Positions 13,296 to 29,258 of a DNA stretch of 64,000 nt are shown one piece after another. Source of the stretch: an uncultured Spirochaetota bacterium (GTDB taxonomy: Bacteria; Spirochaetota; Spirochaetia; SZUA-6; CAVTHK01); assembly GCA_963734495.1 (NCBI GenBank), contig CAVTHK010000011.1, forward strand, positions 64,001 through 128,000. Direction: 5' to 3'. Every line of letters starts with the position of its first letter. Within the stretch, counting starts at the first letter, position 1. The notes below the pieces were generated by a model. It saw only the letters and a list, made by a program, of their open reading frames with translations. It ran no database searches and was not told the DNA's origin. Position numbers and translations under genes: made by a program.

Positions 13296-14495
13296 TTATA
13301 GCGGACCGGTCCCCCGCGGCTCCATCTCGCGGTCGAGGCCGAACGGGTTGTCCGCGGCCCCGAGGCGGCCGGCGAGCAGGTCCGCGAGCAGGCGGCTTCC
13401 CGCCGGGCTCGCCATTACGCCGTGGCCGCTGTACCCCGTGTTGACCCAGAGCCCTTCGACCCCGGTGGGCCCGATCAGCGGGCGGTGATCAGGGGTCATC
13501 GTGTACCGCCCCGCCTGGATCATCCACTGGATCGCGCCGTGCTCCCAGACGTCCCGCCAGAAAGGGGCGACGCGCGCGGCGGCGATCGGGCTCGCCGGGT
13601 CGAGCAGGCGGAAGGCGAGCTCGTGATCGATCCCCACAGGATCGGAAGGGTGCGTGGCCGCAGTGGTGGGGTCCGTGTAGAGCAGGTAGGCGCCCTGGAG
13701 CGCGGGCCTCCAGTGGACCCCGGTGTCCTCGTCGATCGTCATCGGCGCGTCGGCCGGCACCTGCGGGAGGTCGGGGAGCACGATCTTCTGCCGCCGCACG
13801 GCAGTCACCGGAAGCTGCACGCCCGCCTCGTGCGCGACCAGCGCCGAAAGCGGCCCGGCTGCGATCACCGCGGTGCGCGTGCTGATGACGCCCGCCGTCG
13901 TCTCCACGGCGGCCAGGCGCCCGCCCGAAAGCCGGAAGCCGGTCACGCTGCACCCGACAGCGGCCGGCGCGGCGGAGGCGGCGGCGAGCCCGTGCGTCAG
14001 CCGCTTCGGGTCGATGAAGCCGTCGCCCTGCCGGAAGCGCGCCTGGATCACGTCGGGGCTCGCGTAGGGAAAGCGGCGCCGCACCTCGCCGCCCGTGAGG
14101 ATCTCGATGTCCTTCTGTCCCCAGGAGTGCTGCTGCGCGACCAGCTCGCGCTGCCGCGCCGCGGCCGCGGGATCGGTCGTGAGGAAGAGGTAGCCCTGCG
14201 GTCGGACCCCCGGGTCATACGCTGTCTGGCGGGTCACCTCGGCGAAGTGGAGGAACAGCTCGACTGACTCGCGCACGAGGTCCATTTCTTCGCGGGTGTC
14301 GAACTGCAGGCGGAAGCCGCCGGTGGCCGCGGCTGTGGTCAAGGTCGCCAGTCTCGGCCTGCGCTCGACGATCAGCGGGTGCATCCCCGCGCGCGCGGCA
14401 AAGAAGGCGGTGGCCGCGCCCACGACCCCTCCGCCGACGATGACCAGGTCAGCGGTGCGGGGCGGCTCTCGCAGGTAGGTGATGGTCGGCCCCAT
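13296..14495 (-). CDS. FAD-dependent oxidoreductase, DAO/sarcosine oxidase beta family
   Basis: IVGGGVVG, TPDHRPLIG, GYSGHG; start MGPTITY at 14495. Confidence 0.88.
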   Translation of the reverse strand: MGPTITYLREPPRTADLVIVGGGVVGAATAFFAARAGMHPLIVERRPRLATLTTAAATGGFRLQFDTREEMDLVRESVELFLHFAEVTRQTAYDPGVRPQGYLFLTTDPAAAARQRELVAQQHSWGQKDIEILTGGEVRRRFPYASPDVIQARFRQGDGFIDPKRLTHGLAAASAAPAAVGCSVTGFRLSGGRLAAVETTAGVISTRTAVIAAGPLSALVAHEAGVQLPVTAVRRQKIVLPDLPQVPADAPMTIDEDTGVHWRPALQGAYLLYTDPTTAATHPSDPVGIDHELAFRLLDPASPIAAARVAPFWRDVWEHGAIQWMIQAGRYTMTPDHRPLIGPTGVEGLWVNTGYSGHGVMASPAGSRLLADLLAGRLGAADNPFGLDREMEPRGTGPL

Positions 14496-14563
14496 CGTTG
14501 CCCCCCGCAGCAAAGGTGGTGGCAGCGGGAGCCCGCGGTCAAGGGGCGCGCAGCGTCGGCGCG

Positions 14564-15839
14564 TCAGCCGGAGGTGACGGGATTGCTGAGGGCGAGCAGC
14601 GTGCCCGCGGTGTCGCGCACCTCCACGACGCACCAGCGCGACCTGCCGGCGGCGACAGGGCGCGCGCCCTCGCCGTCCGCACGGAGCTCCAGCGGCGGCT
14701 CGCCCTCGCGCACGAGGCGCACGAGACTTCCGGGCGGGCAAGCGCCCCACCGGACGTTGCCGCCCTCGAAGGCCAGGCGCGGACCCGAGGTCAGGTAGAG
14801 CCGGCCGGCTGCAACGGCGGCAAGGATGGCGGCTTCGGTCCTGTCTTCGGCGGCGACCATATTGAACCCGACGTGGTCCTCGATGCCCGGCCCGTGGGCG
14901 TCGGTGCCTGCCGTCGCCACAAGCCGGTGCCCCTGCCGCAGCCACTCGTACCACAGCGCCAGAGCGCGCTCGTTGTTGCTTTCGCCCCCCCAGGGGCCGT
15001 TCCACACTTCGACGACACCCGCGGTTCCGGGCATCATGTCGTCGAACCGCCAGTCGCAGCCCGTGCAGTGAGGGTCGCCGACCGACGTCGGGTGGGCGAT
15101 CACGAAGAGCCCGCCGCGCCCCCGCACGTCGGCCGCGATCGCCTGCATGCTCCTGCCGCTTTCGATCACGCCCCAGTCGATCCAGTCGCGCGTGCCCAGG
15201 CTCAGCGCGTGGCCGTGGAACGTCGTGAGCTCGAAGCCCCCCATCACGAGCAGGTCGGCGGAAGTCATCTCCCCGATGCCCGCGAGGTGCGAGATCGTGT
15301 TGTGATCGGTCAGCGTGACGAAGTCGAGCCCGGCCGCGCGGGCGGCAGCGAGGAGGGCAGGCGTTTCCCAGGACCCGTCTGAGGCGACCGTGTGCGCGTG
15401 CAGGTCGCCCCGGTACCAGCCGGGCCCCGAGCGCCCGGGGCGCGCTCCGCGCGATGCAGCCGGCGCCGCGGGCGAGGGCGTCGTCGCCGCCCCCCGCTGC
15501 CAGTCGACGAGGACCTCGTAGGGGCAGGGCCCGCTCACGCGGTGGACGTGGATCACGACCGACCACTCGCCCGCGGGGAGCGGGCCGCGGAGGTAGCCCG
15601 GCGTCGCAAGGCTCGGGCCGATCGAGACCGAGTGCGAAGCTGCCGCCGCGGTGGCCGGAGCCGCGGAAGCCCTCAGGGTCGAAGAGGCTCAGGCAGAGCA
15701 TGTTCGAGAGCCTGCCGGGCTCACCGGCCGCGAACCTCAGCTCCAGATCAAGCTGCCCCGCCCCGGCAGGCACGCGGAACGTGCGCGCTACGTGGGTCTT
15801 CTGGTCGCTCGGGGAGAGCGTGCCGCCGAATCTCAGCAT
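14564..15839 (-). CDS. PHP-domain metallohydrolase (CehA/McbA-like), +1 frameshift near 15635
   Basis: N-part MLRFGG...FRGSGHR continues in the next frame as HSVSIGPSLATPGYLRGPLPAGEW. PHP motifs GDLHAHT..SDG, TDHN, AHP, GTDAH. Confidence 0.8.
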
Positions 15840-15850
15840 TCGAAGCGTGG

Positions 15851-16186
15851 CTACGCGGTCGTCAGAGCGGCCCGCTGGCGGGAGACGTTTCTGCGGATGA
15901 TCGTCTCGAGGCCGTCCATGAAGTGGGAGATGCACTGACAGGAGAGCGAATAGTACACAGTGGTGCCCTCCTTGCGGTCTTCGACGACTCCCGCGGCCTT
16001 GAGCAGGGAAAGGTGCTTGGAAATCGTAGACGTGTCGGAGCCCACCATCTCCGTCAGCTCACACACGCAGTACGGGTGTTTCTGCAGCTTTTCGACGATG
16101 AAGATGCGGGTCGGGTGCGCAAGCGCCTTGAGGATGCGGGCCCTCGCCTCGGAGCGCGCCCTTTCGCCGGCCGTCATTCCCTTCAT
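15851..16186 (-). CDS. arsR: ArsR/SmtB-family metalloregulator
   Basis: KALAHPTR, CVCEL, STISKHLSLLK, YYSLSCQC. Confidence 0.9.
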   Translation of the reverse strand: MKGMTAGERARSEARARILKALAHPTRIFIVEKLQKHPYCVCELTEMVGSDTSTISKHLSLLKAAGVVEDRKEGTTVYYSLSCQCISHFMDGLETIIRRNVSRQRAALTTA

Positions 16187-16290: not shown

Positions 16291-16533
16291 GTGACGGTGC
16301 AGATCCTGGGCGGCGGCTGCCCCAAGTGCCACCAGCTCGAGAAGAACGCGAAAGAGGCGATCGCGCGCCTGGGCATCAACGCGACGGTGGCCGCGGTCAC
16401 CGATATGGACAAGATCGTTGAGATGGGCGTCATGGTCACGCCCGCCCTCGCCGTCGACGGCACGGTGAAGAAGGCCGGTGCCGTCCTGTCGGTCGACCAG
16501 ATCACGCAGATCCTGAAAGCGAGCGCGGGATGA
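16291..16533 (+). CDS. Small thioredoxin-family redox-active disulfide protein (MTH895/Thioredoxin_3-like)
   Basis: ILGGGCPKC, GVMVTPALAVDG; SD AGGAGG. Confidence 0.9.
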   Translation: MTVQILGGGCPKCHQLEKNAKEAIARLGINATVAAVTDMDKIVEMGVMVTPALAVDGTVKKAGAVLSVDQITQILKASAG

Positions 16534-17762
16534 GCTCTCTGGAGACTCGCCCGCGGCCTGCTGACCGGCTGCGGGCGGCGTTGTCGGAAAAGAAGAATCA
16601 GGCGCTGCTGATCCTCTTCGGGGTGTTCCTGTTCGCTTACCTCGTGCCGTTCGCCCATCCGCGCGTGAGCGGCGCCGTCAACGAAGCCTTCGCGATGCTG
16701 GGCGAGTACGCGCGGCAGCACGTGCTGCTGTGCCTGGTGCCCGCTTTCTTCATCGCGGGCGCGATCACGATGTTCCTCAACCAGCAGTCCGTGATCCGCT
16801 ACCTCGGGCCGAACGCGCCCAAACCGGTGGCGTACAGCGTGGCCGCCGTGAGCGGCACGATTCTCGCCGTCTGCTCGTGCACAGTCCTTCCTTTGTTCAA
16901 GGGCATCTATCGCAAGGGCGCGGGTCTGGGGCCCGCAGTCTCCTTTCTCTATTCCGGGCCCGCGATCAACGTGCTGGCCATCGTGCTGACGGCCAAAGTG
17001 CTCGGGCCCGAGCTGGGCCTTGCGCGGGCGCTCGGCGCCATGGCATTTGCCGTGCTCATCGGCCTGTCCATGCACATGATATTCCGCCGCGAGGACGAGC
17101 AGCGGACCACCAATGCGGCGATGTTCGAAGGCGAGGTCCCCGCCGCGCCTCGTTCCCTCGGGCAGACCTCGATCATGATGGCCGCGATGGTGGGGATCCT
17201 CGTCTTCGTGAACTGGGCGCCTTCAGCGGGGGCCGCGGGGGCATGGGACGTGGTGTACAGGGCGAAGTACCTGATCACGGCCGCCTTCGGCCTGCTGCTC
17301 GTGTACTCGCTCCTGCGATGGTTCGAGCGCAGCGAGCTGCGCGACTGGGTCGCAGCCACCAGGGACTTCGCGGTGCAGATCCTGCCGCTGCTCTTTGGCG
17401 GAGTGCTCGTGGCAGGGTTTCTCTTGGGGCGGCCGGGCCACGGCGCGCTCATCCCCCAGGGCTGGGTCGCGGGGCTCGTGGGCGGAAATACGCTGGGCGC
17501 CAACCTGATCGCGTCGGTGTTCGGCGTGCTGATGTATTTTGCCACGCTGACCGAGGTCCCGATCATGCAGGGGCTGATCGGCGCCGGCATGGGCCAGGGG
17601 CCGGCCCTCGCGCTGCTGCTCTCGGGACCGTCTCTTTCCCTCCCTTCGATCCTCGTCATCGCGGGCGAGATCGGCTGGCGCAAGACCGCGACTTATGCCG
17701 GTCTCGTGGTAGTGTTCTCCACGCTGACCGGCCTCGGCTATGGCGCCCTGATGGGACGGTGA
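16530..17762 (+). CDS. ArsP/DUF318-family permease
   Basis: HVLLCLVPAFFIAGAI, AVCSCTVLPLF, MYFATLTEVPI. Confidence 0.88.
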   Translation: MSSLETRPRPADRLRAALSEKKNQALLILFGVFLFAYLVPFAHPRVSGAVNEAFAMLGEYARQHVLLCLVPAFFIAGAITMFLNQQSVIRYLGPNAPKPVAYSVAAVSGTILAVCSCTVLPLFKGIYRKGAGLGPAVSFLYSGPAINVLAIVLTAKVLGPELGLARALGAMAFAVLIGLSMHMIFRREDEQRTTNAAMFEGEVPAAPRSLGQTSIMMAAMVGILVFVNWAPSAGAAGAWDVVYRAKYLITAAFGLLLVYSLLRWFERSELRDWVAATRDFAVQILPLLFGGVLVAGFLLGRPGHGALIPQGWVAGLVGGNTLGANLIASVFGVLMYFATLTEVPIMQGLIGAGMGQGPALALLLSGPSLSLPSILVIAGEIGWRKTATYAGLVVVFSTLTGLGYGALMGR

Positions 17763-17768
17763 CTCTGA

Positions 17769-18204
<436 letters not shown>

Positions 18205-18215
<11 letters not shown>

Positions 18216-19450
18216 CAACGAAGCGGCGGCAGGCAGGCAGGTGAGAGGGCTCGGGCTCTTCGACCGCTATCTCACTCTCTGGGTATTCCTCTGCATTGTC
18301 GCGGGCATTATTCTGGGACGCCTCGCTCCGGAAACGGCGAAATTTCTCGACGGCCTGTCGATCTATTCTGGCGGCGCGCCGGTCGTTTCCATCCCGATCG
18401 CGGTCTGCCTCTTCTTCATGATGTTCCCGATCATGGTCAAGATCGATTTCCGCGAGGTGGTCCAGGCCGGCCGCAGCGCGAAGCCCGTCGCGCTGACGCT
18501 GTTCGTCAACTGGGCGATCAAGCCCTTCACGATGTACGCCATCGCCGTGTTCTTCCTCGGGGCGGTCTTTCGCGGCTTCATCGGCGCCGATGCCGTCGAT
18601 CTGGTCAAGATGCCCTTCGGCCTGGACCTGCCGGTGGGCGCGACGTACGGCTCAGGAACGGTCGTGCTGTCGGAGGGCGCCAGGATGCTGCAGGTGCCGC
18701 TGTGGCGCAGCTACCTGGCCGGCTGCATCCTGCTCGGGGTCGCGCCCTGCACCGCGATGGTGCTGGTGTGGGGCTAGCTTGCCCGGGGCAACGACGGTCA
18801 CACCCTCGTGATGGTGGCCATCAACTCGCTGACCATGCTGCTGCTGTACGGACCGCTCGGCGGCTTGCTGCTCGGAGTCGGCCGGCTTCCCGTGCCCTGG
18901 CAGGCGCTGGTGCTCTCGATCGCGATCTACGTCGCCTTGCCGCTGGTGGCCGGCTACTTCGTCCGTCGATGGATCATCGGCGCCAGAGGCGAAGCGTGGT
19001 TCCGGGAGAAGTTCCTGCACGTGCTCTCGCCGATCACGACCGTCGCGCTCCTCGCTGACGCTGGTGCTTCTGTTCTCGTTCAAGGGCGACGTGATCGTCG
19101 CAAACCCGCTGACGATTCTCTGGATCGCCGTGCCGCTCTTTATCCAGACCATGCTCATCTTCTGGCTCGGTTACTGGCTGGCCCGCGTTCTGAGGCTGAC
19201 CTACGCCGACGCCGCCCCCACCGCGATGATCGGGGCGTCGAACCACTTCGAGGTCGCCATCGCCACCGCGACCATGCTGTTCGGCCTGTCCTCCGGCGCG
19301 TCCCTCGCCACGGTGGTCGGCGTGCTGATCGAGGTCCCGGTGATGCTGATGCTGGTGCGCATCTGCCTGAAGACCACGCGGTGGTTTCCGCAGACGGCGC
19401 CTGCCGCGGCGGTCGCGCAGGCACGGCCGACACGAGGTCGTTCCGCTTGA
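18205..19450 (+). pseudogene. acr3: ACR3-family arsenite efflux transporter with an in-frame TAG (18775-18777) and a +1 frameshift (~19054); pseudogene or assembly error
   Basis: [60 protein letters not shown] spread over three ORFs. Confidence 0.85.
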
Positions 19451-19454
19451 GGCC

Positions 19455-20222
19455 TCACCGCGCCGAGACGCCCCCGTCGATGACCAGCTCGCTCCCGGTC
19501 ATGTAGCGCGACTCGTCGGTGGCGAGGAACAGGATCCCCCAGGCGATGTCGTCCGGCTGGGCGAGGCGGCCGAGCGGGGTCATCGCCGTTCGTTTCTCCC
19601 GCACTCCCGGCTGCGAATGGAAGTTGCGCGTCATCGGCGTTTCGACGAACCCCGGGAAGACCGCGTTCACCCGGATGCCCTCGGATGCGTATTGAATCGC
19701 CGCTGTCTTGGAGAGCGCCCGGACCGCCCCCTTGGATGCGGCGTAGGCCGTGCCGAAGTCGTCCCCCACGATCGCGTAGACCGAAGCGGTGTTGATGATC
19801 GAGCCGCCGCCCGCGGCGCGCATCAGAGGGACCGCGTGCTTGATCCCGAGGAACACGCCCCTCGCGTTGGTGGCGAAGGTGACCTCCCACCCTTCCACGG
19901 TCGTGTGCTCCACCGTCGGCCGCGAAAGCGGCCCTCCGCGCCCGGCGTTGTTGACGAGCACGTCCAGCCTGCCGAAGAGGCTCCTGACGCCGTCCATGAC
20001 GCGGGCCCACCCCGGCTCGTCGCTCACGTCGAGGTGCTCGAAGACGACCTTGACGCCGCCCTTGCCGAGCTCCGCGGCAAGCGTCTGGCCCGCCTCGTCG
20101 TTGATGTCGGCGATCACGACGCCCGCTGCGCCGTGGGCGGCGAAGAGCCGGCAGGCCGCCCCGCCGATTCCCGATGCGCCGCCGGTGACGAGGGCGACCT
20201 TGCCCCGCAGCCTTCCGTTCAC
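19455..20222 (-). CDS. Short-chain dehydrogenase/reductase
   Basis: [29 protein letters not shown]. Confidence 0.92.
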
Positions 20223-20285
20223 GAAAACCTCCGTCTGCGGCGATGATAACCCGGAGGCGCCCCGTTCTGCAGTCCGGCGACGCCC

Positions 20286-22205
20286 CTATCCCTCGTGCAC
20301 CGCGGTGCGTGTCGCCGTCCGCTGGGTCGCCAGGGAGACCAGCACGAGCACCACGAAGCTGAACGGGATCGAGATGATCCCAGGGTTCGCCAGTGGTATC
20401 GGCGCCTTGAGCGGGTCCAGGCCGTAGAGGCTGTACATCGTCGGCGAAAAGAGAATGAGCCCGATCGAGGAGGCGATTCCGGCGATGATGGAGGCCGTGA
20501 TGCCGGCGGCCGTCGCTTTCTTCCAGAACAGCATCATGATGATCGCCGGCAGGTTTGCCGAAGCGGCCACGGCAAAGGCGAGCCCCACCAGGAACGAGAC
20601 GTTCACGCCCTTGAAGATGATCCCGAGGACGATGGCGACGAACCCGACGGCGAAGGCAACGACCTTGCCGACGAATACCTTCTGCTTGTCACTGGAGATC
20701 AGCCCTCCGAACCGGTCCAGAAGGTCGTGGGCCACCGCGCCCGAGGCCGCAATGATGAGCCCGCTCACCGTGCCCAGAACGGTCGCGAAGGCGATCGCCG
20801 AGATCATGGAAAAGAGAAAGGTTCCAAACGTGCGGGCCAGCAGCGGTGCCGACATGTTGTCGTCCAGCAGGTTGACCACGCCCCCTGTCATCGCGCCGAG
20901 TCCCATGAAGAGCGTGAGCACGTAGAACAGGCCGATGGCGGCGATCGCCACGATGGTCGACTTGCGCGCCGCCGCGGCGCTGGGCACCGTGTAGTAGCGG
21001 ATCAGGATGTGCGGCAGAGCGGCCGTGCCCAGGAAGAGAGCGATCATGAGCGAGGCGAAGTCGATCCGCTGCAACGGCGTGCCGTCGACGCGGAAACGGA
21101 GCCCGGGGCGGAGGATCCGGCTCCCTTCGGTGAGAACCGGATAGTAGACAGTCACCTTGTCCTGGCCGTCCGCGAACCGTGTCGACTTCCACAGTCTCAC
21201 CTTGCTCTGGCGATCGCCGATGAGGCTGAGGAACTTGAAGGGTCCTATCGGGCCGGTCCTCACCTCGGGTCCGGTCTTTCCCGCGATCGCTTCCATGTTC
21301 CCGACCAGGGCAAGCTGATTGTCGCGAGAGGCCGGAGCCCCGTTGATGACGTCCGGCTGCCCGGGCCGCGTTACCACCGACTGAGTCTCCTGCAGGCGGA
21401 CGGTGCCTTCCGCCTTTTCGACCTTCCACCAGGTCGACGTGCCGTCGCGCAGGAGCCTGGCGAACCGCAGGCCTCCGGCATCGACGACGGCGGCCACGCT
21501 GTAACGGGGGTCCTCCGCGGCAAGCGTCCCGCCGGTCTCCGCGGCGTTCAGGGTTGCGTACTGCTTGAACGGCACGCGGCCCCCCTGGTCGGGCGTCGTC
21601 GAGAGCCCGCGCAGGCTCACCGCCGCCACCAGGACCAGGGAGAACACGATCAGGAGGGTCCCCTTGATGAACTGCACGTAGGTCGTGGAGGTCATGCCGG
21701 CCGTAGCCACGATGGTGACGACGATGAAACCGACCATGATGACCCCTGCGTAATGCGGCAGGCCGAGCAGCGGGGTCACAAGAACGCCGGCGCCCACCAT
21801 CTGGGGAATGAGGTAGCACAGCGAGACGAGCAGCGTGCTGATGGCGGCCGCGAGCTTGATGCCCTTGTTGTCGAACTTGGCGTCCAGCGCATCGGTGAAC
21901 GTGTACTTGCCGAGCCGCTTGAGCGGCTCAGCCACGACGAAGAGCGCCACGATCCAGCCGGCGAGGTAGCCGATGGAATAGAGGAAGCCGTCGTACCCCG
22001 CTGTGGCGATCATGCCGCAGATCCCCAGAAAGGAGGCCGCTGAGAGGTAGTCCCCCGCGAAGGCCACGCCGTTTACCGACCAGTGGATCCGGCTTCCGGC
22101 CGCATAGTAGCCGCTCGCTGACCTCGCACGCCCCGCGAAGTAGAAGGAGATGGCCAGCACCAGGGCGACAAAGAGCACAAAGAGAGCAACGGGAAGGATG
22201 CCCAT
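20286..22205 (-). CDS. actP: Cation/acetate (monocarboxylate) symporter, SSS family
   Basis: AGDYLSAASFLG, YLIPQMVGAG, GTAALPHILIRYYTVP, AFATVLGTVSGL, AASANLP; large hydrophilic insertion in the middle. Confidence 0.88.
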   Translation of the reverse strand: MGILPVALFVLFVALVLAISFYFAGRARSASGYYAAGSRIHWSVNGVAFAGDYLSAASFLGICGMIATAGYDGFLYSIGYLAGWIVALFVVAEPLKRLGKYTFTDALDAKFDNKGIKLAAAISTLLVSLCYLIPQMVGAGVLVTPLLGLPHYAGVIMVGFIVVTIVATAGMTSTTYVQFIKGTLLIVFSLVLVAAVSLRGLSTTPDQGGRVPFKQYATLNAAETGGTLAAEDPRYSVAAVVDAGGLRFARLLRDGTSTWWKVEKAEGTVRLQETQSVVTRPGQPDVINGAPASRDNQLALVGNMEAIAGKTGPEVRTGPIGPFKFLSLIGDRQSKVRLWKSTRFADGQDKVTVYYPVLTEGSRILRPGLRFRVDGTPLQRIDFASLMIALFLGTAALPHILIRYYTVPSAAAARKSTIVAIAAIGLFYVLTLFMGLGAMTGGVVNLLDDNMSAPLLARTFGTFLFSMISAIAFATVLGTVSGLIIAASGAVAHDLLDRFGGLISSDKQKVFVGKVVAFAVGFVAIVLGIIFKGVNVSFLVGLAFAVAASANLPAIIMMLFWKKATAAGITASIIAGIASSIGLILFSPTMYSLYGLDPLKAPIPLANPGIISIPFSFVVLVLVSLATQRTATRTAVHEG

Positions 22206-22491
22206 CTATCGGCCCTCCTTGTTGTCGGCAAGCTCCGCCTCTTTGCGGCTGCACGCGCGGTTGTAGAAGTAGGGCCAGGACCAAGGCGAGGACGATGAGC
22301 CCCATCCCGTACACGACGGCCAGGTTCAGCCCTGCGACGACCGTCACGCCCATGAGCGAAGGATCGATCAGATTGATGGCGACGAATCCCGCGTACACGG
22401 TGCAGTAGATCACGAACATGATCACGCCCAGACGCCTCTTGAATGCGAACGCGGGGTCCCTGCCGGCGGATGCGGCTGGCTGGTGCAACAT
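22206..22491 (-). CDS. DUF485 (YjcH-like) small membrane partner of ActP, +1 frameshift near 22270
   Basis: RLGVIMFVIYCTVYAGFVAIN...GLNLAVVYGMGLI, resuming as FYNRACSRKEAELADNKEGR*; the stop abuts the actP ATG. Confidence 0.8.
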
Positions 22492-22629
22492 GCGACGACC
22501 TTCCTTTTCTCTGTCGTTGTGGCTGTTTATCTCATTCCTGCACTCAGAAAGCAAGCAACTCCCCGCCCGCCCCCGCCGGCCGGCGCGGCTTGGAGAAGGC
22601 GGGCGAACGGGATACGATGGACCAGGCCG

Positions 22630-25600
22630 ATGAGCGAAGAAATCTGCGTGGGCCTTCACTGCCATTCCAACCTCAGCGACGGAAGCCTCACGCCCGAACA
22701 GCTTGCCGAGCTTGTCGCGTCGCACGGCGCCCGGTACGCGGCCCTCACGGATCATGACACCGTCGCGGGATCCCGTCGTTTCCGACAGGCTCTTTCGCGC
22801 CTGGGCGTCGGCTGCGTCGACGCGGCCGAAATCACGACCGCCTCGCCCTGGGGTGAGATCCATCTGCTGGCCTACGGCGTGCGCGTCGACGACGAGAATC
22901 TTCTGGCCCTGCTCGAGGCGACTCGCCGGCGCACAGATCCCGGCGTGCAGGGCCTGGTCGATTCCCTCCGGCGCTTCGGCTCCCGGGCGGATCCTCCGCA
23001 TCCGCAAACGGCCGGCCCCGCCGAGGTGATTGCCGCGATCCACGCGGCCGGCGGCGCGGCCTTTCTCGCTCACCCGCTCTCCTACGCCTTTGACGCGGGT
23101 TCCCTCGAGCCGATCATCGCCGAGCTCGCGGCTGCCGGGCTGGACGGACTGGAGGCGATCTACCCGGGGTATGCCCCGCAGAATGTAGAGAGGCTGCTGG
23201 ACCTCGGCCGGAAGTACGCCCTCGCGATCAGCGCGGGAAGCGACTACCACGGCCCGGGCATGGCCGGTCCGGTCTCGCCCTGCGTTACCATGGACAGGCA
23301 GCGTTGGGAGGCGTTGCGGGATCATATCCTGCGCGTGGCTCCTCAGGGCCGGGGCGGGGGCGACGGCGCGCCGATTCCGCTGCCGGTTGCCAGTCGAGTG
23401 CGCCTGGGCGGATCTGCAGCCCGTGTCATCTTCCCCGCCGTCCTCGCGATCGTCCTCTTTCTCGTGACGATCTTTGCGGTGCTCATCCCGAGCTTTGAGC
23501 GCGTTCTCATGGAGAAGAAGAAGGACCTGATCCACGAGCTGACCAATTCCGCTGTGAGCGTCCTCGCGGAGTTTGCCGCCGACGAGCGGGCCGGCTCCCT
23601 GACGCGCGAGCAGGCACAGAGCGCCGCGGCTGCCCGCATTCGGGATCTCCGCTACGGCAAGGAGGGCAAGGACTACTTCTGGATCACCGACACGCATCCC
23701 ACGATGATCGTTCACCCCTACCGCCGGGAGCTGGAAGGCACGGACGTCTCGGGGTACATGGACGCCAACGGCGTGCGGGTCTTCGTGGAATTCATCAAGG
23801 CGGTCCGGGAAAAGGACGAGGGCTACGTCGAGTATCTGTGGCAGTGGAAGGACGACGCGCACCGCATCGTGCCCAAGCTGTCATTCGTCAAACGCTTCGC
23901 CCCCTGGGACTGGGTGGTGGGCACCGGCGTCTATCTCGACGACGTGAACTCCGAGATCACGGGGATCGCGGGCCGCTTTATCGGGCTGGAGGCGGCGGTT
24001 TCCGTCGTGCTGTCCCTTCTTCTGGTCTTCATCGCGCACCAGAGCCTGGCCGCCGAGCGGCGTCGCCGGGTCGCAGAGTCCAGCCTGCGGGAATCTCACG
24101 AGAAGTACCGGGCGCTGGTGGAGGCGTCGACCGAGGGGATGCTCATCGTGGTCGGCGGCGCCTGCACTTACGCCAACAGGACGCTGCAGGACATGCTTGG
24201 TTTTACCGAGGCGGAGATCTCGCTCCTCGGGGTCGCCGACCTGATCCGGGCCCGCGAGGGAGACGACGCGGCCCGGCGCGCGTTTCTCGACTCGCTCTCC
24301 GGCGATCCCGCGCGATCAGCGGCGCCTGCCGGCGAGTTCCCGCTGGCGGGCCGCGACGGGCGGACGGTGGATGCGCTGCTCACGGCCTCCCGATTCGACG
24401 TGGCCGGCCGGGACAGCGCGATTATCACAGTAAAGGATCTGGCGGCACGGCGGAGGGCCGAGGCGGCCGCCGACTCCGTCGGCCTGTCCGACGCCCTGTG
24501 GAAGGGCGTCGCGATCGGGATCTTCAGGGCAACCTGGGGCCGCAGAGCGTTCCTGCTGGCCTGCAACCCCGCGGCGCGCGAGATCCTCGGCCTTTCCGGA
24601 GACACCGACATCACGCAGGTCAACCTCTTCAGCCTGCTGGCCGATCAACGCGAGGGGGAAAAGCTCTACAGCGACCTCTCCGAGGGCATCGCCTTGCGCG
24701 AGCGCGAGGTTCGCCTGCAGGGGCTCGACCGCCGCGAGCGTGTCGTCCTCCTTTCCGCGGCGGTGGAGTCGGACGCCGACAGCGGCGAAACGCGCTGCCT
24801 CGACGGCGTCCTGCAGGACGTGACCGAGCTCACGCGACGCCGCCAGAGAAGCGAGGAGCTCATGGCGGAGCTTGAGACTTCATCGCTGCTCCTGCTGGAC
24901 TCAGTGGAGAGATATTCAACGCCCGCCGCGACCTGCGATATGAACACCCCGATCCGGACGGCAGCGGGGCGCATGAGCCGGACCCGCCAGGACGCCCTGG
25001 TGGTGCTGACCCCGGCCGGGGATCCTGTCGGGATCGTGACGGATCGCGACATGCGAGAGCGCGTCGTGGCCGCCCAACTGGATCCGCAGCGACCGGTGCG
25101 CGAGATCATGAGCTCGCCCCTGGTCACGACGCGCCAGAGCTCGCCGGTCTACGAGGCGATTCTCCTGATGCGCGAGCGGGGCATCGCGCATCTGGCGGTC
25201 AAGGACCCGGAGGGCCGGGTGGTCGCCGTGACGCGGGGGATGGACCTGTTGCGGATGCAGCGTCAATCCCCGGCCATGATTCGTCAGGAGATCCGGGCTG
25301 CCGGCTCCGTCGAGGATCTCACGGAGTGCCGGTCCAGAGTGGCGGACCTGGTGCGGGGTCTGGTTGCGGGCGGCGCGCGACCGCGATCCGCCGTTCGGGT
25401 CTTCTCCATGGCCTCCGACCTGATCGTCGAGCGCCTCGTCGACTTTGCCGTTCGCGAGCTCGGCGACCCTCCCGCCGCTTTCGCCTTTGTGGCCATAGGC
25501 AGCGAGGGACGCCGGGAGCAGACTCCAGCCTCGGACCAGGACAACGCGATCGTCTACGCGGACGCGGCCGACGCGGAGAAGGCCCGCCGCTACTTCGTGT

Positions 25601-26253
25601 CCCTTGGCGAAAGCGTCTGCCGGCGGCTGAATGAGGTAGGGGTCCCTTACTGCCAGGGCGGTATCATGGCCATGAATCCCGAATGGTGCGTTCCCCTTGA
25701 GAAGTGGCGAGGCTATTTTGCCCGCTGGATCCGGGAGCCGGAGCCCGAGCAGGTCTTGCGCTTCAACATCTTCTTCGACCTCCGGTGCACGACGGGGAAC
25801 GGCGAGCTCGTCGAGGCGCTGCTCCGAACCGCGCGGGACCTCGTCGCGGCGACGCCTTCGTTTCTTCTCCATCTGGCGCAGGACTCACTCGGGAAGCGGG
25901 TGCCCGCCAACCGTAAGGCGGGCGACATCGATCTCAAAGAGGCAATGTCGCTCGTTGTCAATTTTGCGCGGGTCTACAGTCTGCGTCACGGCGTCGACGC
26001 CACCAACACGCTCGAACGACTGGACGATCTGCGCGACGCCCGGGTTCTCAGCCGCTCTTCGCACGCGAACATCACTCAGGCCTACGAGCTCCTGATGCGT
26101 CTGCGGCTCGGGCTCGATTCGTTGACGCACAGGGCTGCCGTCGACCCGGCTTCGCTGCCGCGCGATCAGCAGGCGCTGCTACGGGACGCCGTGGCGGAAC
26201 TGCCGGTGCTCCAGAAGAAGATGGCCTTTGATTTCCTCGGCCAGGCGCTGTAG
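22630..26253 (+). CDS. Membrane sensor-enzyme fusion: PHP - TM - Cache_2 - TM - PAS - PAS - CBS pair - DUF294 nucleotidyltransferase - DUF294_C
   Basis: LHCHSNLSDG/TDHD/AHP/GSDYHG; YFWITD...HP...PKLSFVKRFAPWDWVVGTGVY; YANRTLQDMLG; ACNPAAREILG; GIVTDRD...IMSSPL; GSEGRREQTPASDQDN; IDLK...NTLERL. Confidence 0.85.
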   Translation: MSEEICVGLHCHSNLSDGSLTPEQLAELVASHGARYAALTDHDTVAGSRRFRQALSRLGVGCVDAAEITTASPWGEIHLLAYGVRVDDENLLALLEATRRRTDPGVQGLVDSLRRFGSRADPPHPQTAGPAEVIAAIHAAGGAAFLAHPLSYAFDAGSLEPIIAELAAAGLDGLEAIYPGYAPQNVERLLDLGRKYALAISAGSDYHGPGMAGPVSPCVTMDRQRWEALRDHILRVAPQGRGGGDGAPIPLPVASRVRLGGSAARVIFPAVLAIVLFLVTIFAVLIPSFERVLMEKKKDLIHELTNSAVSVLAEFAADERAGSLTREQAQSAAAARIRDLRYGKEGKDYFWITDTHPTMIVHPYRRELEGTDVSGYMDANGVRVFVEFIKAVREKDEGYVEYLWQWKDDAHRIVPKLSFVKRFAPWDWVVGTGVYLDDVNSEITGIAGRFIGLEAAVSVVLSLLLVFIAHQSLAAERRRRVAESSLRESHEKYRALVEASTEGMLIVVGGACTYANRTLQDMLGFTEAEISLLGVADLIRAREGDDAARRAFLDSLSGDPARSAAPAGEFPLAGRDGRTVDALLTASRFDVAGRDSAIITVKDLAARRRAEAAADSVGLSDALWKGVAIGIFRATWGRRAFLLACNPAAREILGLSGDTDITQVNLFSLLADQREGEKLYSDLSEGIALREREVRLQGLDRRERVVLLSAAVESDADSGETRCLDGVLQDVTELTRRRQRSEELMAELETSSLLLLDSVERYSTPAATCDMNTPIRTAAGRMSRTRQDALVVLTPAGDPVGIVTDRDMRERVVAAQLDPQRPVREIMSSPLVTTRQSSPVYEAILLMRERGIAHLAVKDPEGRVVAVTRGMDLLRMQRQSPAMIRQEIRAAGSVEDLTECRSRVADLVRGLVAGGARPRSAVRVFSMASDLIVERLVDFAVRELGDPPAAFAFVAIGSEGRREQTPASDQDNAIVYADAADAEKARRYFVSLGESVCRRLNEVGVPYCQGGIMAMNPEWCVPLEKWRGYFARWIREPEPEQVLRFNIFFDLRCTTGNGELVEALLRTARDLVAATPSFLLHLAQDSLGKRVPANRKAGDIDLKEAMSLVVNFARVYSLRHGVDATNTLERLDDLRDARVLSRSSHANITQAYELLMRLRLGLDSLTHRAAVDPASLPRDQQALLRDAVAELPVLQKKMAFDFLGQAL

Positions 26254-26274
26254 GCCCCTGCGCCGAGGCGGGCG

Positions 26275-27594
26275 TCACGAGCGGCGGAAGATCCTGGCGA
26301 GCAGGCCGCGGGGCGGCGCGATGCCGAAGAATCCGGAGATCTGGTTGGCGAGCTCCCGGCGCAGGATCTGGAAGGAGAAGTGCTTGCGCGCGAGCTCGAA
26401 GTTCTTGTCCGTCATCTCCTTCCTGCGCCGGGGATCGGTGAGGACCCTACTGACCTCCTTGACCGCGGCGTCCGTGACGTAGCCGTCGATCGCGATCACG
26501 TCGAAGCCCTTGGGCTCGATGTCCACGATGAAGACAGAGTAGCGGTTGACCAGGATCGGTTTGCGGAAATACACTGCTTCGAGAAACGCGTTGCCGAACC
26601 CTTCGTAAATGCTCGGGTAGGTGATCAGGTCCGCGTGCGGGTAGACGTCCCACAGCGAGTACCCGCCTGCTTCTCCCCGCGCCTCCTCGTTGAGCCTGTT
26701 GTGGATAAAGTGCAGCGGCACTCCCTGACGCAGGCCCCAGTTCCTCACCCAGTCGGCGTACTCCGGGCCTTCGTCGTCCATGGTGTGCGAGACGACGAGC
26801 TTCGCGTTGGGCATGTTGAGCAGCTCCACCAGGTAGATGGCCTGCTCGATGCCCTTGCGGAACACGACCCTCGTCGGCTGGAGGATGATGACGTCGTCCT
26901 CCTTGAAACCCATGTCCGAGCGGAAACGACGGCCGTCGCGCGGGCGGGGGGCCTTCTTCTCGAAGTCCATGACGTTGTAGATGAGGCGCGCGGCGATATT
27001 CCTGCGGGCCGCAAGCTCCGTCTGCGCCACGGAGTTGATCACGACGTGGCTGATCGTGGGGAGGTCGGGAGGAAACGCGGCGGCGAGGATGTCCTGGCAG
27101 GCGCTGCTCAGGAAGCGAGTCCGCTCCCAGAAGAAGTCGTGGTGGTGGGCGATGGTCGGGATTCCGGTCTCGGCGATGAGCTCCGTGAGCGCGACGCCCA
27201 GGGGGACGTGCATGGGGATCGCGAGGGCGTTCTCCACGACGAGCAGGTCGATGCCGAACTTCTCGACGAACTCGTACAGCCGGTCCTTGAGCTGCTCCTT
27301 GAGCCCGTGCAAGGCGTCGGTGGTCTTGCGCGTCCTCCGCTGGCCCGAGAACAGCGTCTTCGTGAGCTCGAGCACGGCGGGATGGCCGAAAAAGGCCTCG
27401 GGCACGAGGAGGCTCGCCGCGGGGTCGCGGTCCAGCTCCCCGGCGAACCAGAAGCACTTGTGGCCGAGCTCCCTGAAGACCGAGGCCCACTTGGACGCCT
27501 CGAGCGAGACCCCGTCGAGGCCGCGGAAGCGGGTCGAGACGAAGCCGACACGGAGCGACGCGTCGCGGCGGCCGCCCGAAGCGCCCGGCTTCAC
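26275..27594 (-). CDS. GT4 glycosyltransferase, mannosylglucosylglycerate synthase-like
   Basis: DGVSLEASKW, HHHDFFWER, QPTRVVFRKGIE, YPSIYEGFGNAFLEA; GTGA overlap with the upstream gene. Confidence 0.8.
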   Translation of the reverse strand: MKPGASGGRRDASLRVGFVSTRFRGLDGVSLEASKWASVFRELGHKCFWFAGELDRDPAASLLVPEAFFGHPAVLELTKTLFSGQRRTRKTTDALHGLKEQLKDRLYEFVEKFGIDLLVVENALAIPMHVPLGVALTELIAETGIPTIAHHHDFFWERTRFLSSACQDILAAAFPPDLPTISHVVINSVAQTELAARRNIAARLIYNVMDFEKKAPRPRDGRRFRSDMGFKEDDVIILQPTRVVFRKGIEQAIYLVELLNMPNAKLVVSHTMDDEGPEYADWVRNWGLRQGVPLHFIHNRLNEEARGEAGGYSLWDVYPHADLITYPSIYEGFGNAFLEAVYFRKPILVNRYSVFIVDIEPKGFDVIAIDGYVTDAAVKEVSRVLTDPRRRKEMTDKNFELARKHFSFQILRRELANQISGFFGIAPPRGLLARIFRRS

Positions 27595-29258
27595 GGAGCG
27601 TCCCCCAGCCACGCCGTCTGGCGCGGGGCCAGGCGGCGCGGCGCGGACCCGCCGCGGATCAGCTCGATCGCGCCGCGCGCACCCGGCAGGCGCTTCAGGT
27701 CGACCGAAACGCCGCGGTCCGAAACGTTCTGCAGGCAGAGCACCTGCCGGCCGTCCGGCGCCGTGCGCTCCACTGCGAACAAGGCGTCGCCCGCGTCGAG
27801 CACGCGGTGGGCCGTGCCGGGGGCGAACGCCGGGTGCGCGGCTCGCACTTCCAGCAGCCGTTTCACCCGCGCGAACACCCGCGCGCGCCGCGAGCGCGGA
27901 TCGGCGAGCTCCGCTTCGAGCGCCGCGAGCTCGAGCCGCTGCCTGTTGATCGCGCGGTTGCTGCCGCTGCGCTCGGCGCCCTCGCGCCAGCCCGTCGAGC
28001 CGAACATGCTGTGGAACCAGATGCCCGGCACGCCGGGAAGCGCCAGCGCGATCGCGTGCGCGCCGACCAGCCGGTCGACCCAGGCTTCGACGGGCTCGCG
28101 CGGATCGGTCAGCGCGTCGCCGTAGTTGATGTTCAGCTCATAGGGGCTCGCGCTGCCGTCGCTGCCGGTCCGGTAGGAGACCAGGCCTCCGTGCGCCAGG
28201 GCGCGGTCCACGAGAGCAGCCGCCTCGGCGTCGGTGAGGAGGCCGCGCGCGGCGTTCAACCCGATCCCGTCGTGCGACGCGAGGAAGTTGAAAAACGTCG
28301 TCCGCGGCGACGGGGAGGCGAGCGCCGCGGCCCACCGCGAAAGGGCCGCAGCGCTTCCGGCATGAAACGAGTGCAGCACCAGCGGCGGCAGCGCGAAGTT
28401 GTAGACCATCTGCGCCTCGTTCGCGCCGTCGCCGAAGTAGGAGACGTTTTCCTCGTGCGCCACGTTGGTCTCGGTCACCAGAGCGACGTGGGGCGCGGCG
28501 CGGTCGAGCACCGAGCGGTAGAGCTGGATGACGCGGTGCGTCTCCGGCAGGTGCACGCACGAGGTGCCCATCCGCTTCCAGAGGTAGGCGATCGCATCGA
28601 GCCGGATGATCCCGGCGCCGCGCGAAGCGTAGGAGAGCAGCGTATCGATCGTCTCCAGCAGCACCTCGGGGCGGGCGAAGTTCAGGTCGACCTGGTCGTC
28701 GGAGAACGTGGTCCACACGAGCCTCTCGCCGGCGGGCGTCGCGAACCTCGTGAGCAGCGGCAGCGTGCGCGGCCGCGTCACCATCGACAGGTCGGTCCCT
28801 TCCGCAACGGTGATGAACCAGTCGCGGTACCTCGGGTCGTCGTCGAGGAAACCCCTGAACCAGGCGCTGCGTACCGACACGTGGTTGAACACCGCGTCGA
28901 GCATGAGGCGGAATGTCCGTCCGAGGCGCGCCACGTCGTCCCAGCTCCCGAGCGCCGGGTCGACCGCGCGGTAGTCGATCACCGAGAAGCCGTCGTCCGA
29001 CGACGAGGGGTAGAAGGGGAGGATATGGACAAAGGTGAAGGTCCCCGCCAGGCGGCGCTCGCAGAAGCGGCCGAGAGCGGCCAGCGGCGGTGAGCCCGCC
29101 TCGCGCACCATGTCCGCGTACGTGATGAGCACGGCGTCGCGTTCGGTAAAGCCGCCCGCGGGCTGCTCAGGCATCCGGCCGCGCCACGCCTCGATCAGCC
29201 GCTCGATGCGCGCGTCGGTCTCGCGGCCCGACTGCTCGCCGTAGAGAAGCTCGGTCAT
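27591..29258 (-). CDS. GH13_18 sugar phosphorylase (glucosylglycerate phosphorylase/YcjM-like)
   Basis: LITYAD, HILPFYPSSSDDGFSVIDY, WTTFSDDQVDLN, RLDAIAYLWK, TETNV, SHDGIG, YELN. Confidence 0.88.
   Translation of the reverse strand: MTELLYGEQSGRETDARIERLIEAWRGRMPEQPAGGFTERDAVLITYADMVREAGSPPLAALGRFCERRLAGTFTFVHILPFYPSSSDDGFSVIDYRAVDPALGSWDDVARLGRTFRLMLDAVFNHVSVRSAWFRGFLDDDPRYRDWFITVAEGTDLSMVTRPRTLPLLTRFATPAGERLVWTTFSDDQVDLNFARPEVLLETIDTLLSYASRGAGIIRLDAIAYLWKRMGTSCVHLPETHRVIQLYRSVLDRAAPHVALVTETNVAHEENVSYFGDGANEAQMVYNFALPPLVLHSFHAGSAAALSRWAAALASPSPRTTFFNFLASHDGIGLNAARGLLTDAEAAALVDRALAHGGLVSYRTGSDGSASPYELNINYGDALTDPREPVEAWVDRLVGAHAIALALPGVPGIWFHSMFGSTGWREGAERSGSNRAINRQRLELAALEAELADPRSRRARVFARVKRLLEVRAAHPAFAPGTAHRVLDAGDALFAVERTAPDGRQVLCLQNVSDRGVSVDLKRLPGARGAIELIRGGSAPRRLAPRQTAWLGDAP

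Follow-up and report, generated by a model that had tools for sequence, protein, structure and literature searches.

DUF294 modules (COG2905) are a widespread signal-transduction output, and in pseudomonads, vibrios and many others their genes belong to the regulons for uptake of acetate and propionate. Pertinent precedents are GlnD, a single chain that unites a nucleotidyltransferase (NTase) with an HD-type metal-dependent hydrolase and domains that sense ligands, and Legionella DrrA/SidM with the de-AMPylase SidD, where the logic is that of a writer with a separate metal-dependent eraser. For soluble DUF294 proteins, the part of one report that is accessible has PA3232-PA3235 of Pseudomonas aeruginosa co-induced on propionate (10.1101/2022.08.25.505149). 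In the accessible part of another (Price et al., 10.1101/072470), a COG2905/RNase T gene is cofit with the neighbouring DUF4212-SSS transporter, with the speculation that the COG2905 gene is needed for transporter expression. The case dealt with here is a gene at 22630..26253, on the forward strand of a 64,000-nt stretch of DNA from an uncultured Spirochaetota bacterium (contig CAVTHK010000011.1, positions 64,001 to 128,000; ‘the window’ is this whole stretch). Its product, termed the sensor, carries DUF294 at the C-terminal end of a predicted transmembrane receptor and a PHP-type phosphoesterase domain at the N-terminal end. The sensor family is a populous, unnamed branch of DUF294 regulators; the domain family is already known, and a literature search, with subscription journals outside its scope, found no paper giving an account of the PHP-Cache fusion.

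The receptor and its relatives

The gene lies within an uninterrupted forward-strand open reading frame (ORF) at 22483..26253, which amounts to 1256 aa when counted from GTG 22483. The first in-frame ATG is at 22630 (MSEEICVGLHCH...), and this is the likely start because a database copy, P0002, has 1207 aa and homologues align from residue 1-7. The single unbroken frame of about 1,200 aa described in the initial annotation is thus borne out. The features of the protein, with residue numbers of the 1207-aa form, are as follows (TM, transmembrane segment; AF2, AlphaFold2).

22630..26253, forward strand: sensor gene, 1207 aa plus stop; P0002 is 100% identical at 1207 aa
22630..23334, forward strand: PHP phosphoesterase domain, TrpH/YciV-like, presumably cytoplasmic, residues 1-235 (Pfam PHP)
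23425..23493, forward strand: TM1, residues about 266-288 (hydropathy scan)
23506..23967, forward strand: predicted periplasmic sCache_2 domain, residues 293-446 (Pfam, 1.9e-41)
23980..24045, forward strand: TM2, residues about 451-472 (hydropathy scan)
24088..24468, forward strand: PAS domain 1, residues about 487-613 (PAS_8, PAS, TIGR00229)
24556..24828, forward strand: PAS domain 2, residues about 643-733 (PAS_9)
24898..25272, forward strand: CBS pair, residues about 757-881 (Pfam CBS twice, AF2 model)
25336..25749, forward strand: DUF294 nucleotidyltransferase core, residues 903-1040 (Pfam, 2e-45), with G957 S958 .. D969 Q970 D971
25912..26235, forward strand: DUF294_C helical ‘substrate-binding’ domain, residues 1095-1202 (Pfam, 3.2e-22), within the GlnE/DrrA fold match

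Pfam positions, here alone given in the numbering of the 1256-aa form, place PHP at 58-120 (28.3 bits, cut-off 26.4), sCache_2 at 342-495 (E 1.9e-41), PAS_8 at 540-590, PAS_9 at 692-782, two CBS domains beginning at 812, DUF294 (PF03445) at 952-1089 (E 2e-45, 154.5 bits, cut-off 21) and DUF294_C (PF10335) at 1144-1251 (E 3.2e-22, 79.3 bits, cut-off 22.5). With the hydropathy scan the order is PHP, TM, sCache_2, TM, PAS, PAS, CBS pair, DUF294 and DUF294_C, so that every domain initially named is recovered. The motifs reported for the PHP metal site (HCHSNLSDG, TDHD, AHP, GSDYHG) and for the transferase (GSEGRREQ..SDQDN) likewise stand intact in the translation. In the scan two hydrophobic segments and no more stand out, at about 266-288 and 451-472; they flank Cache as had been proposed, and for this reason PHP and the PAS-CBS-DUF294 part would lie on the same, presumably cytoplasmic, side. 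At E<=0.1, Pfam and NCBIfam domain models give no histidine kinase, methyl-accepting chemotaxis protein (MCP), GGDEF/EAL or helix-turn-helix (HTH)/DNA-binding output, in keeping with the original description, and Pfam gives no match to the cyclic nucleoside monophosphate (cNMP) domain PF00027; HD and ACT domains are also absent from the sensor by Pfam.

Of 8000 candidates scored in a word-based protein search, 708 proteins had E<=0.001. DUF294 is present in all 120 of the homologues listed and PHP in about 115 (by a reading of precomputed Pfam lists); most of those listed align over 94-100% of the sensor at 38-58% identity, and the closest, at 49-58%, align with it end to end. Contigs drawn from one genome per species gave at least 600 pattern matches, and 595 of 600 encode a relative of the sensor. 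The best 80 of these at least 595 relatives, fetched with 10-kb flanks, together with the window make up the 81 Cache-type loci referred to below. The phyla of the 80 are Chloroflexota, Armatimonadota, Actinomycetota, Acidobacteriota, NC10, Gemmatimonadota, Sumerlaeota, Spirochaetota, Lentisphaerota, Bacteroidota, Ignavibacteriota, Chlorobiota, Myxococcota, Desulfobacterota and others.

The initial annotation had itself raised the prospect that PHP is a gene of its own, merged with the receptor by faulty assembly; an indel is another conceivable cause. The assembly does seem to carry indels, with the nearby DUF485 gene frameshifted and an Acr3 gene split, and in 4 Actinomycetota PHP truly is a separate gene. 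However, an indel would break a frame, not fuse two genes; the closest homologues share the whole length of the protein, and the same uninterrupted fusion recurs in 31 independent loci, which span at least 10 phyla. Because relatives in many phyla carry it, the fusion is real, and its dismissal as an artefact, almost certainly wrong, was rejected. A check of sequencing runs found none containing the stretch (best share 0.09) and listed no RNA run; the four runs compared hold short pieces from relatives only, with the PHP-TM junction outside their cover.

In 42 full-length homologues (38-58% identity) the PHP ligands H10, H12, D17, H42, E67, H78, H148, D205 and H207 are invariant. The nearest NCBIfam models to the sensor PHP are those for 3',5'-nucleoside bisphosphate phosphatase, i.e. 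pAp phosphatase (NF041577, 114.2 bits against a cut-off of 400), and RNase RNM (NF047791, 105.7 against 375), and with both scores below cut-off the domain falls outside either equivalog. Its PDB matches are 3e0f, 9etk, 7ug9 and 2yb1. A predicted complex of the PHP domain with CBS-DUF294 scored 0.00, in a run made without controls, a score that speaks neither for nor against the pairing.

HMMER aligns the Cache domain to the acetate-bound domain of Adeh_3718 (4K08) with E 7.6e-35 and to PscD (5G4Y/5G4Z) with E 4e-33. According to the part of Brewster et al. (PMC5062169) that is accessible, acetate is bound by PscD, McpP and Adeh_3718, and the PscD residues touching propionate are Y90, W92, H103, F126, Y143, W145 and K156. 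In the HMMER alignment all seven are identical in the sensor (Y349, W351, H362, F385, Y402, W404 and K416), and these, with much of the Cache domain, are invariant in the 42 full-length homologues. Because the seven contacts are identical and invariant, a C2/C3 monocarboxylate is strongly predicted as the ligand. The earlier expectation of short carboxylates for Cache_2 has in this way been sharpened, with the pocket appearing to be that of the C2/C3 carboxylate sensors.

At the other end of the chain, the NTase residues G957, S958, G960, R961, E963, D969, Q970 and D971 are invariant in the same 42 proteins, as are G208, S209, D220 and Q221 in a 51-member alignment of the region from CBS to the end. 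An AF2 model of CBS-DUF294 built on that alignment has a mean predicted local distance difference test score (pLDDT) of 91.7 and a predicted template-modelling score (pTM) of 0.77, so the structure prediction first suggested as a check on the domains gives a confident fold for this part. The model was compared by Foldseek with the PDB and by VIA-align with 48,161 representative chains. VIA-align places first the following three chains (root-mean-square deviation, rmsd).

GlnE 1v4a_A: Z 27.3, rmsd 3.6, 330 aligned
GlnE 3k7d_B: Z 26.5, rmsd 3.1, 306 aligned
DrrA 6yx5_B: Z 26.4, rmsd 3.4, 292 aligned

The remaining entries among the 50 listed are CBS pairs with Z<=19 (the CBS matches having Z 15-19), and the top non-CBS matches of Foldseek are the same GlnE 1V4A, 3K7D and DrrA 6YX5_B (E 1.5e-9 to 4.3e-8). 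GlnE 1v4a/3k7d and DrrA 6yx5_B are all protein adenylyltransferases, adenylylating tyrosines of target proteins, and they match the model far better than other nucleotidyltransferases do. On the evidence of the model, then, the DUF294 output module would belong structurally with the protein AMPylators GlnE and DrrA, and the analogy once drawn with the GlnD pairing of NTase and metal hydrolase fits this match. The sensor lies outside the GlnD equivalog itself (TIGR01693, 13.9 bits against a cut-off of 519.4). A HEPN survey groups DUF294_C with the C-terminal domains of GlnD and GlnE. A protein-atlas search with the DUF294 part returned DUF294 clusters only, plus one low-scoring cluster (0.89) in which 13% of members have SidM_N; the latter is a lead only.

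Partner phosphoesterases in DUF294 loci

ORFs were called in the 81 Cache-type loci and clustered by all-against-all BLASTP, and recurrent clusters were named with Pfam and with hidden Markov models made for the purpose. Phosphoesterases are distributed among the loci as follows.

PHP fused: 31 of 81
PHP as a separate ORF: 4 of 81, all Actinomycetota, 10-45 bp upstream on the same strand, with a stop or frame change between the ORFs in each
Calcineurin-like Metallophos gene adjacent (Pfam): 31 of 81
DEDDh exonuclease adjacent: 1 of 81 (L016, Myxococcales)
No adjacent phosphoesterase seen: 14 of 81, five with the flank cut by a contig end and one (L074) with an HD-domain gene adjoining

The three kinds of partner are mutually exclusive and together account for 67/81 loci. 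The Metallophos gene is directly upstream on the same strand in 22 loci, directly downstream and convergent in 5, and downstream on the same strand in 4; its catalytic D8, H10, D36, N71, H72, H149, H188 and H190 are kept in 29-30 of 30. The survey of PHP fusion against a neighbouring DEDDh gene that had been called for thus finds the two mutually exclusive. As to the concern that homologous loci might keep the exonuclease gene, the only one that does so harbours a PHP-less member. The notion that PHP takes the place of the exonuclease passes every genomic test run, with the refinement that a third class, the calcineurin-like phosphoesterase, is as common as PHP.

A quick IQ-TREE phylogeny (LG+G4, SH-aLRT only) was made of the CBS-DUF294 region in 70 rows, these being the 66 loci with complete coverage and 4 soluble outgroups, the other 15 loci being omitted because their coverage was incomplete. 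A single clade (SH-aLRT 99) unites the 28 fused with the 4 split PHP forms, with the caveat that the root depends on four long branches from the outgroups. Forms linked to Metallophos make up a basal grade, and the split PHP forms adjoin a fused Thermoleophilia sequence. Nested inside the PHP clade is the PHP-less, DEDDh-adjacent member from L016, where the order is soluble cNMP-CBS-DUF294, RNase_T exonuclease, PHP-less Cache-DUF294, DUF485 and actP. Our reading of this quick tree is that PHP was probably gained once, later split off once or twice, and lost once, in a place where a DEDDh gene was available. All told, the PHP, Metallophos and DEDDh proteins appear to be the partner phosphoesterase of the DUF294 transferase, supplied fused, split or as a neighbour.

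An ActP-like gene is found within 1.5 kb in 52/81 Cache-type loci and anywhere in the locus in 60/81. In 19 of the 31 PHP-fused loci actP immediately precedes the fused gene on its own strand, so that the genes run DUF485-actP-sensor, and the divergent layout of the window is otherwise present only in L042 and L080. In two deltaproteobacterial loci (L032 7124-9803 and L036 13722-16540) an sCache_2 histidine kinase and a sigma-54 response regulator come directly after the Cache-DUF294 and Metallophos pair, and there are therefore two carboxylate sensors with different outputs in one operon.

For the soluble proteins, a tblastn search with CBS-DUF294 of a plasmid collection gave 68 records, of which 12, picked non-randomly for taxonomic spread, were inspected. 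An annotated 3'-5' exonuclease gene follows on the same strand, no more than two genes downstream, in 10/12, as the initial annotation had it for the DEDDh neighbour; the two without are that of Skermanella and a shorter form from Paracoccus methylovorus, and gene tables in PLSDB are incomplete. RNase_T was matched in 4/4 of the downstream exonucleases scanned, whose DUF294 partners are each cNMP_binding, CBS, DUF294 and DUF294_C. Directly upstream in 9/12 is an SSS symporter (DUF485-ActP in three, DUF4212-SSS in five, sodium/sugar symporter in one). The association of soluble DUF294 with actP/DUF485 therefore stands as regards an adjoining symporter, while the tie is to SSS carriers generally rather than to acetate metabolism specifically, because in a Salinivibrio plasmid (L097 828-5075) the DUF294-exonuclease pair follows the sodium/sugar symporter and adjoins galM. 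Alphaproteobacterial soluble loci also have a conserved hypothetical gene of ~170-190 aa between DUF294 and the exonuclease (L082 6370-6888, L092 4348-4866, L093 4421-4945, L094 4407-4991 and L098 4370-4867), and the one such protein scanned has no Pfam match.

Proposed mechanism and its alternatives

The chain of events preferred here, tentatively and as somewhat short of probable in its entirety, is of an acid-sensing receptor with a transferase acting on an SSS-uptake protein and a PHP domain reversing the product. The sensor would be a one-component transmembrane receptor whose periplasmic sCache_2 domain binds a C2/C3 monocarboxylate, e.g. acetate, glycolate, propionate or pyruvate. The signal would pass via TM2 and the two PAS domains, be combined with a reading of adenine-nucleotide state from the CBS pair, and set the activity of the C-terminal NTase of GlnE/DrrA type (DUF294 with DUF294_C). 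With all its metal ligands and on the same cytoplasmic side, the N-terminal PHP domain would be the dedicated phosphodiesterase partner of the transferase and hydrolyse the nucleotidyl linkage that the latter makes, a role that in other lineages may be filled by the separate DEDDh exonuclease or calcineurin-like phosphoesterase gene. The most likely substrate would be the adjacent SSS uptake protein, i.e. ActP, the DUF485 subunit or a factor for their expression, with uptake adjusted post-translationally, as in GlnD-PII-AmtB. A target among the proteins of SSS uptake is favoured because of the fold match together with the conserved symporter neighbour. We infer, rather than observe, protein nucleotidylylation and its target, the role of PHP as eraser, and gating by acetate and adenylates.

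That PHP is functionally linked to the transferase at all could be challenged, as it is most similar to stand-alone TrpH/YciV-type enzymes; it might be a housekeeping-type pAp phosphatase, 5'-3' RNase or metal/phosphate sensor fused by chance to a Cache receptor. Such a chance union is improbable given the mutual exclusion of PHP, Metallophos and DEDDh partners across 67/81 loci, the persistence of split PHP genes right beside the receptor gene (4 loci), the presence of a DEDDh gene instead in one PHP-less member of the PHP clade, and scores far below the housekeeping equivalog cut-offs (114 against 400 and 106 against 375).

A more substantial alternative concerns the substrate. The transferase may act on nucleic acid or make a small nucleotide, e.g. 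by adding a non-templated tail to an RNA 3' end or by synthesizing a linear di- or oligonucleotide signal, with the hydrolase partner trimming or degrading the product; the consequence would be control of symporter-operon expression, not protein modification. Characterised members of the partner families, which are DnaQ/RNase T-like, pAp phosphatase or 5'-3' exoribonuclease-like, and YfcE/SbcD-like, cut nucleotide phosphodiesters, and short oligonucleotides could conceivably be shared by enzymes of opposite polarity. However, the best structural matches are protein AMPylators, the sensor has no RNA-binding domain by Pfam, and the locus has no Rfam element. There is also no RNA-tailing enzyme or cyclic-nucleotide synthase among the 50 structural entries shown, a weak argument with the list being mostly CBS domains. 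On balance a nucleic acid or small-nucleotide substrate is considered rather unlikely, though still a serious contender.

Returning to reversible modification of an uptake protein, several observations weigh against it. For each of the three hydrolases, the closest relatives with a described activity have nucleotides or nucleic acids rather than proteins as substrates, and because of this a nucleotide or RNA substrate fits at least as well on that count. The 14 loci without an adjacent hydrolase (5 of them with a cut flank) have to be accommodated. A full-length copy is absent from all 20 relatives searched (1 of the same genus and 19 of the same order), and since none of them has it the gene is accessory in the window's lineage. 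Within the window's order there is in addition an 839-aa Cache-PAS-DUF294 protein (L100, G017:C259, 3450-5969), with an N-terminus of ~170 aa without an assigned family and no CBS match, that has neither an adjacent hydrolase nor actP. The frameshift in the neighbouring DUF485 gene, if real, would mean that the uptake operon may be decaying. According to a 2026 preprint (10.64898/2026.09.07.749794), growth on propionate and pyruvate suffers only moderately when PP_0353/PP_0354 of Pseudomonas putida are deleted, and their function is called unclear. Lastly, the literature search found no measured activity for any DUF294 protein.

A bolder generalization may be considered, in which DUF294 modules are a general switch of SSS transporters by protein nucleotidylylation, the DEDDh, PHP and calcineurin-like folds were recruited independently as de-nucleotidylylases, and the sensor is the first transmembrane one-component receptor with reversible AMPylation or UMPylation as its output. 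It is doubtful, if conceivable; to our knowledge de-nucleotidylylase activity is known for none of the three folds. If it is true, a single polypeptide, the sensor, reads acetate outside the cell and adenylate charge inside it. Likewise, were the eraser model to hold, new enzyme classes would be added to the small set of known de-AMPylases, and there would be a new type of bacterial receptor in which nutrient sensing is linked to post-translational control of a transporter. More immediately, the sensor family constrains what DUF294 can be doing. The input, judged from the pocket residues, is very likely C2/C3 carboxylates outside the cell; the transferase, as modelled, groups structurally with protein AMPylators; and a phosphoesterase partner is consistently supplied, whether fused, split or as a neighbour. 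The ‘function unknown’ of DUF294 is thereby narrowed to a short list of possibilities that can be assayed.

Neighbouring genes and comparison with known systems

The span 20286..26253 that was first singled out covers actP, DUF485 and the sensor together; its layout was correctly described, with the amendment that DUF485 is frameshifted. The features beside the sensor are these.

20286..22205, reverse strand: actP-like SSS carboxylate symporter, 639 aa (Pfam SSF, 3.5e-63; aligned to P. aeruginosa ActP)
22206..22491, reverse strand: DUF485 (yjcH-like) gene, frameshifted near 22266-22272; Pfam DUF485 profile positions 13-69 only
22492..22629, no strand: divergent intergenic region, 138 bp between DUF485 and the sensor

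DUF485 is upstream of actP, with its start at 22491, and is divergent to the sensor at 138 bp from the sensor ATG, so the head-to-head arrangement initially noted is as described. In this assembly the conserved C-terminus of DUF485 and its stop, which abuts the actP ATG, lie in another frame. A 151-nt metagenome contig from a 96%-similar relative is without the base at 22266 and has DUF485 in frame, weak evidence at depth 2; the frameshift may be an indel introduced in assembly or may mark a true pseudogene. A promoter/terminator scan gave no consensus promoter in the divergent intergenic region, and there is no Rfam match in 19000-28000. ActP has an insert of ~165 aa (residues ~195-360) that is absent from P. 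aeruginosa ActP and common to 44/60 ActP ORFs adjoining Cache-type DUF294 genes, with a 515-aa Ignavibacteria group being without it; the insert could be a contact site for the sensor. The source genome, 83% complete, has a single DUF294 gene and no match to RNase_T (PF00929), nor is there one in the neighbourhood within the window.

Upstream of actP-DUF485-sensor are a short-chain dehydrogenase/reductase (SDR) gene and an ars cluster, and downstream are glycosyltransferase, amylase and sugar ABC genes. The ars cluster comprises ArsP (16530-17762), a low-molecular-weight phosphatase-type ArsC (17769-18215) and the split Acr3/SBF arsenite carrier, whose ORFs at 18205-18777 and 18808-19506 on the forward strand both match SBF, a second possible assembly indel. 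A second, unrelated PHP-type ORF of 330 aa is present at 14564-15556 on the reverse strand, with HAHT..SDG and a weak match to the PHP profile; it is CehA/McbA-like in appearance and overlaps a long ORF (13296-15935) that has a DAO oxidoreductase as its C-terminal part.

Turning to described systems, one close likeness is to soluble COG2905 (PA3233 of P. aeruginosa, PP_0354 of P. putida), which also has its CBS pair directly before DUF294 and DUF294_C, adjoins an SSS symporter operon (DUF485-actP or DUF4212-SSS; here DUF485-actP, divergent at 138 bp), and with its DEDDh partner (PA3232, PP_0353) is paired with a metal-dependent phosphoesterase. The sensor differs in that its partner hydrolase is the fused PHP domain rather than a separate DEDDh gene, and in that TM-sCache_2-TM-PAS-PAS replaces the cNMP domain, for which reason its input would be extracellular. 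With the sCache_2 chemoreceptor domains of PscD, Adeh_3718 and McpP it shares the sensing domain (E 4e-33 to 7.6e-35, seven contacts identical), whereas those feed MCP signalling and chemotaxis and the output here is PAS-PAS-CBS-NTase. CrbS/MxtR-CrbR/ErdR, as far as the accessible part of the source goes, controls the same uptake genes (acs/actP) in response to short-chain acids; it is a histidine kinase with a DNA-binding regulator, and the sensor has neither.

For the enzymatic domains, the TrpH/YciV-type PHP enzymes (Cv1693, 2YB1; the 5'-3' exoribonuclease 7UG9) share fold family and full metal-ligand set with the sensor PHP, which, however, is about 235 aa, N-terminally fused to a receptor and far under both NCBIfam equivalog cut-offs. 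Likeness to GlnE and GlnD lies in the fold of NTase plus helical domain (Z 26-27 to GlnE), with the difference that the sensor is membrane-bound with a predicted extracellular sensor domain; it is non-orthologous to GlnD (TIGR01693, 13.9 bits against 519.4) and its hydrolase is PHP, not HD. The AMPylation domain of Legionella DrrA/SidM is similarly close in fold (Z 26.4, 292 aligned, 12% identity), though DrrA, an effector, is secreted and targets Rab1 of the host, and the sensor is a resident membrane receptor.

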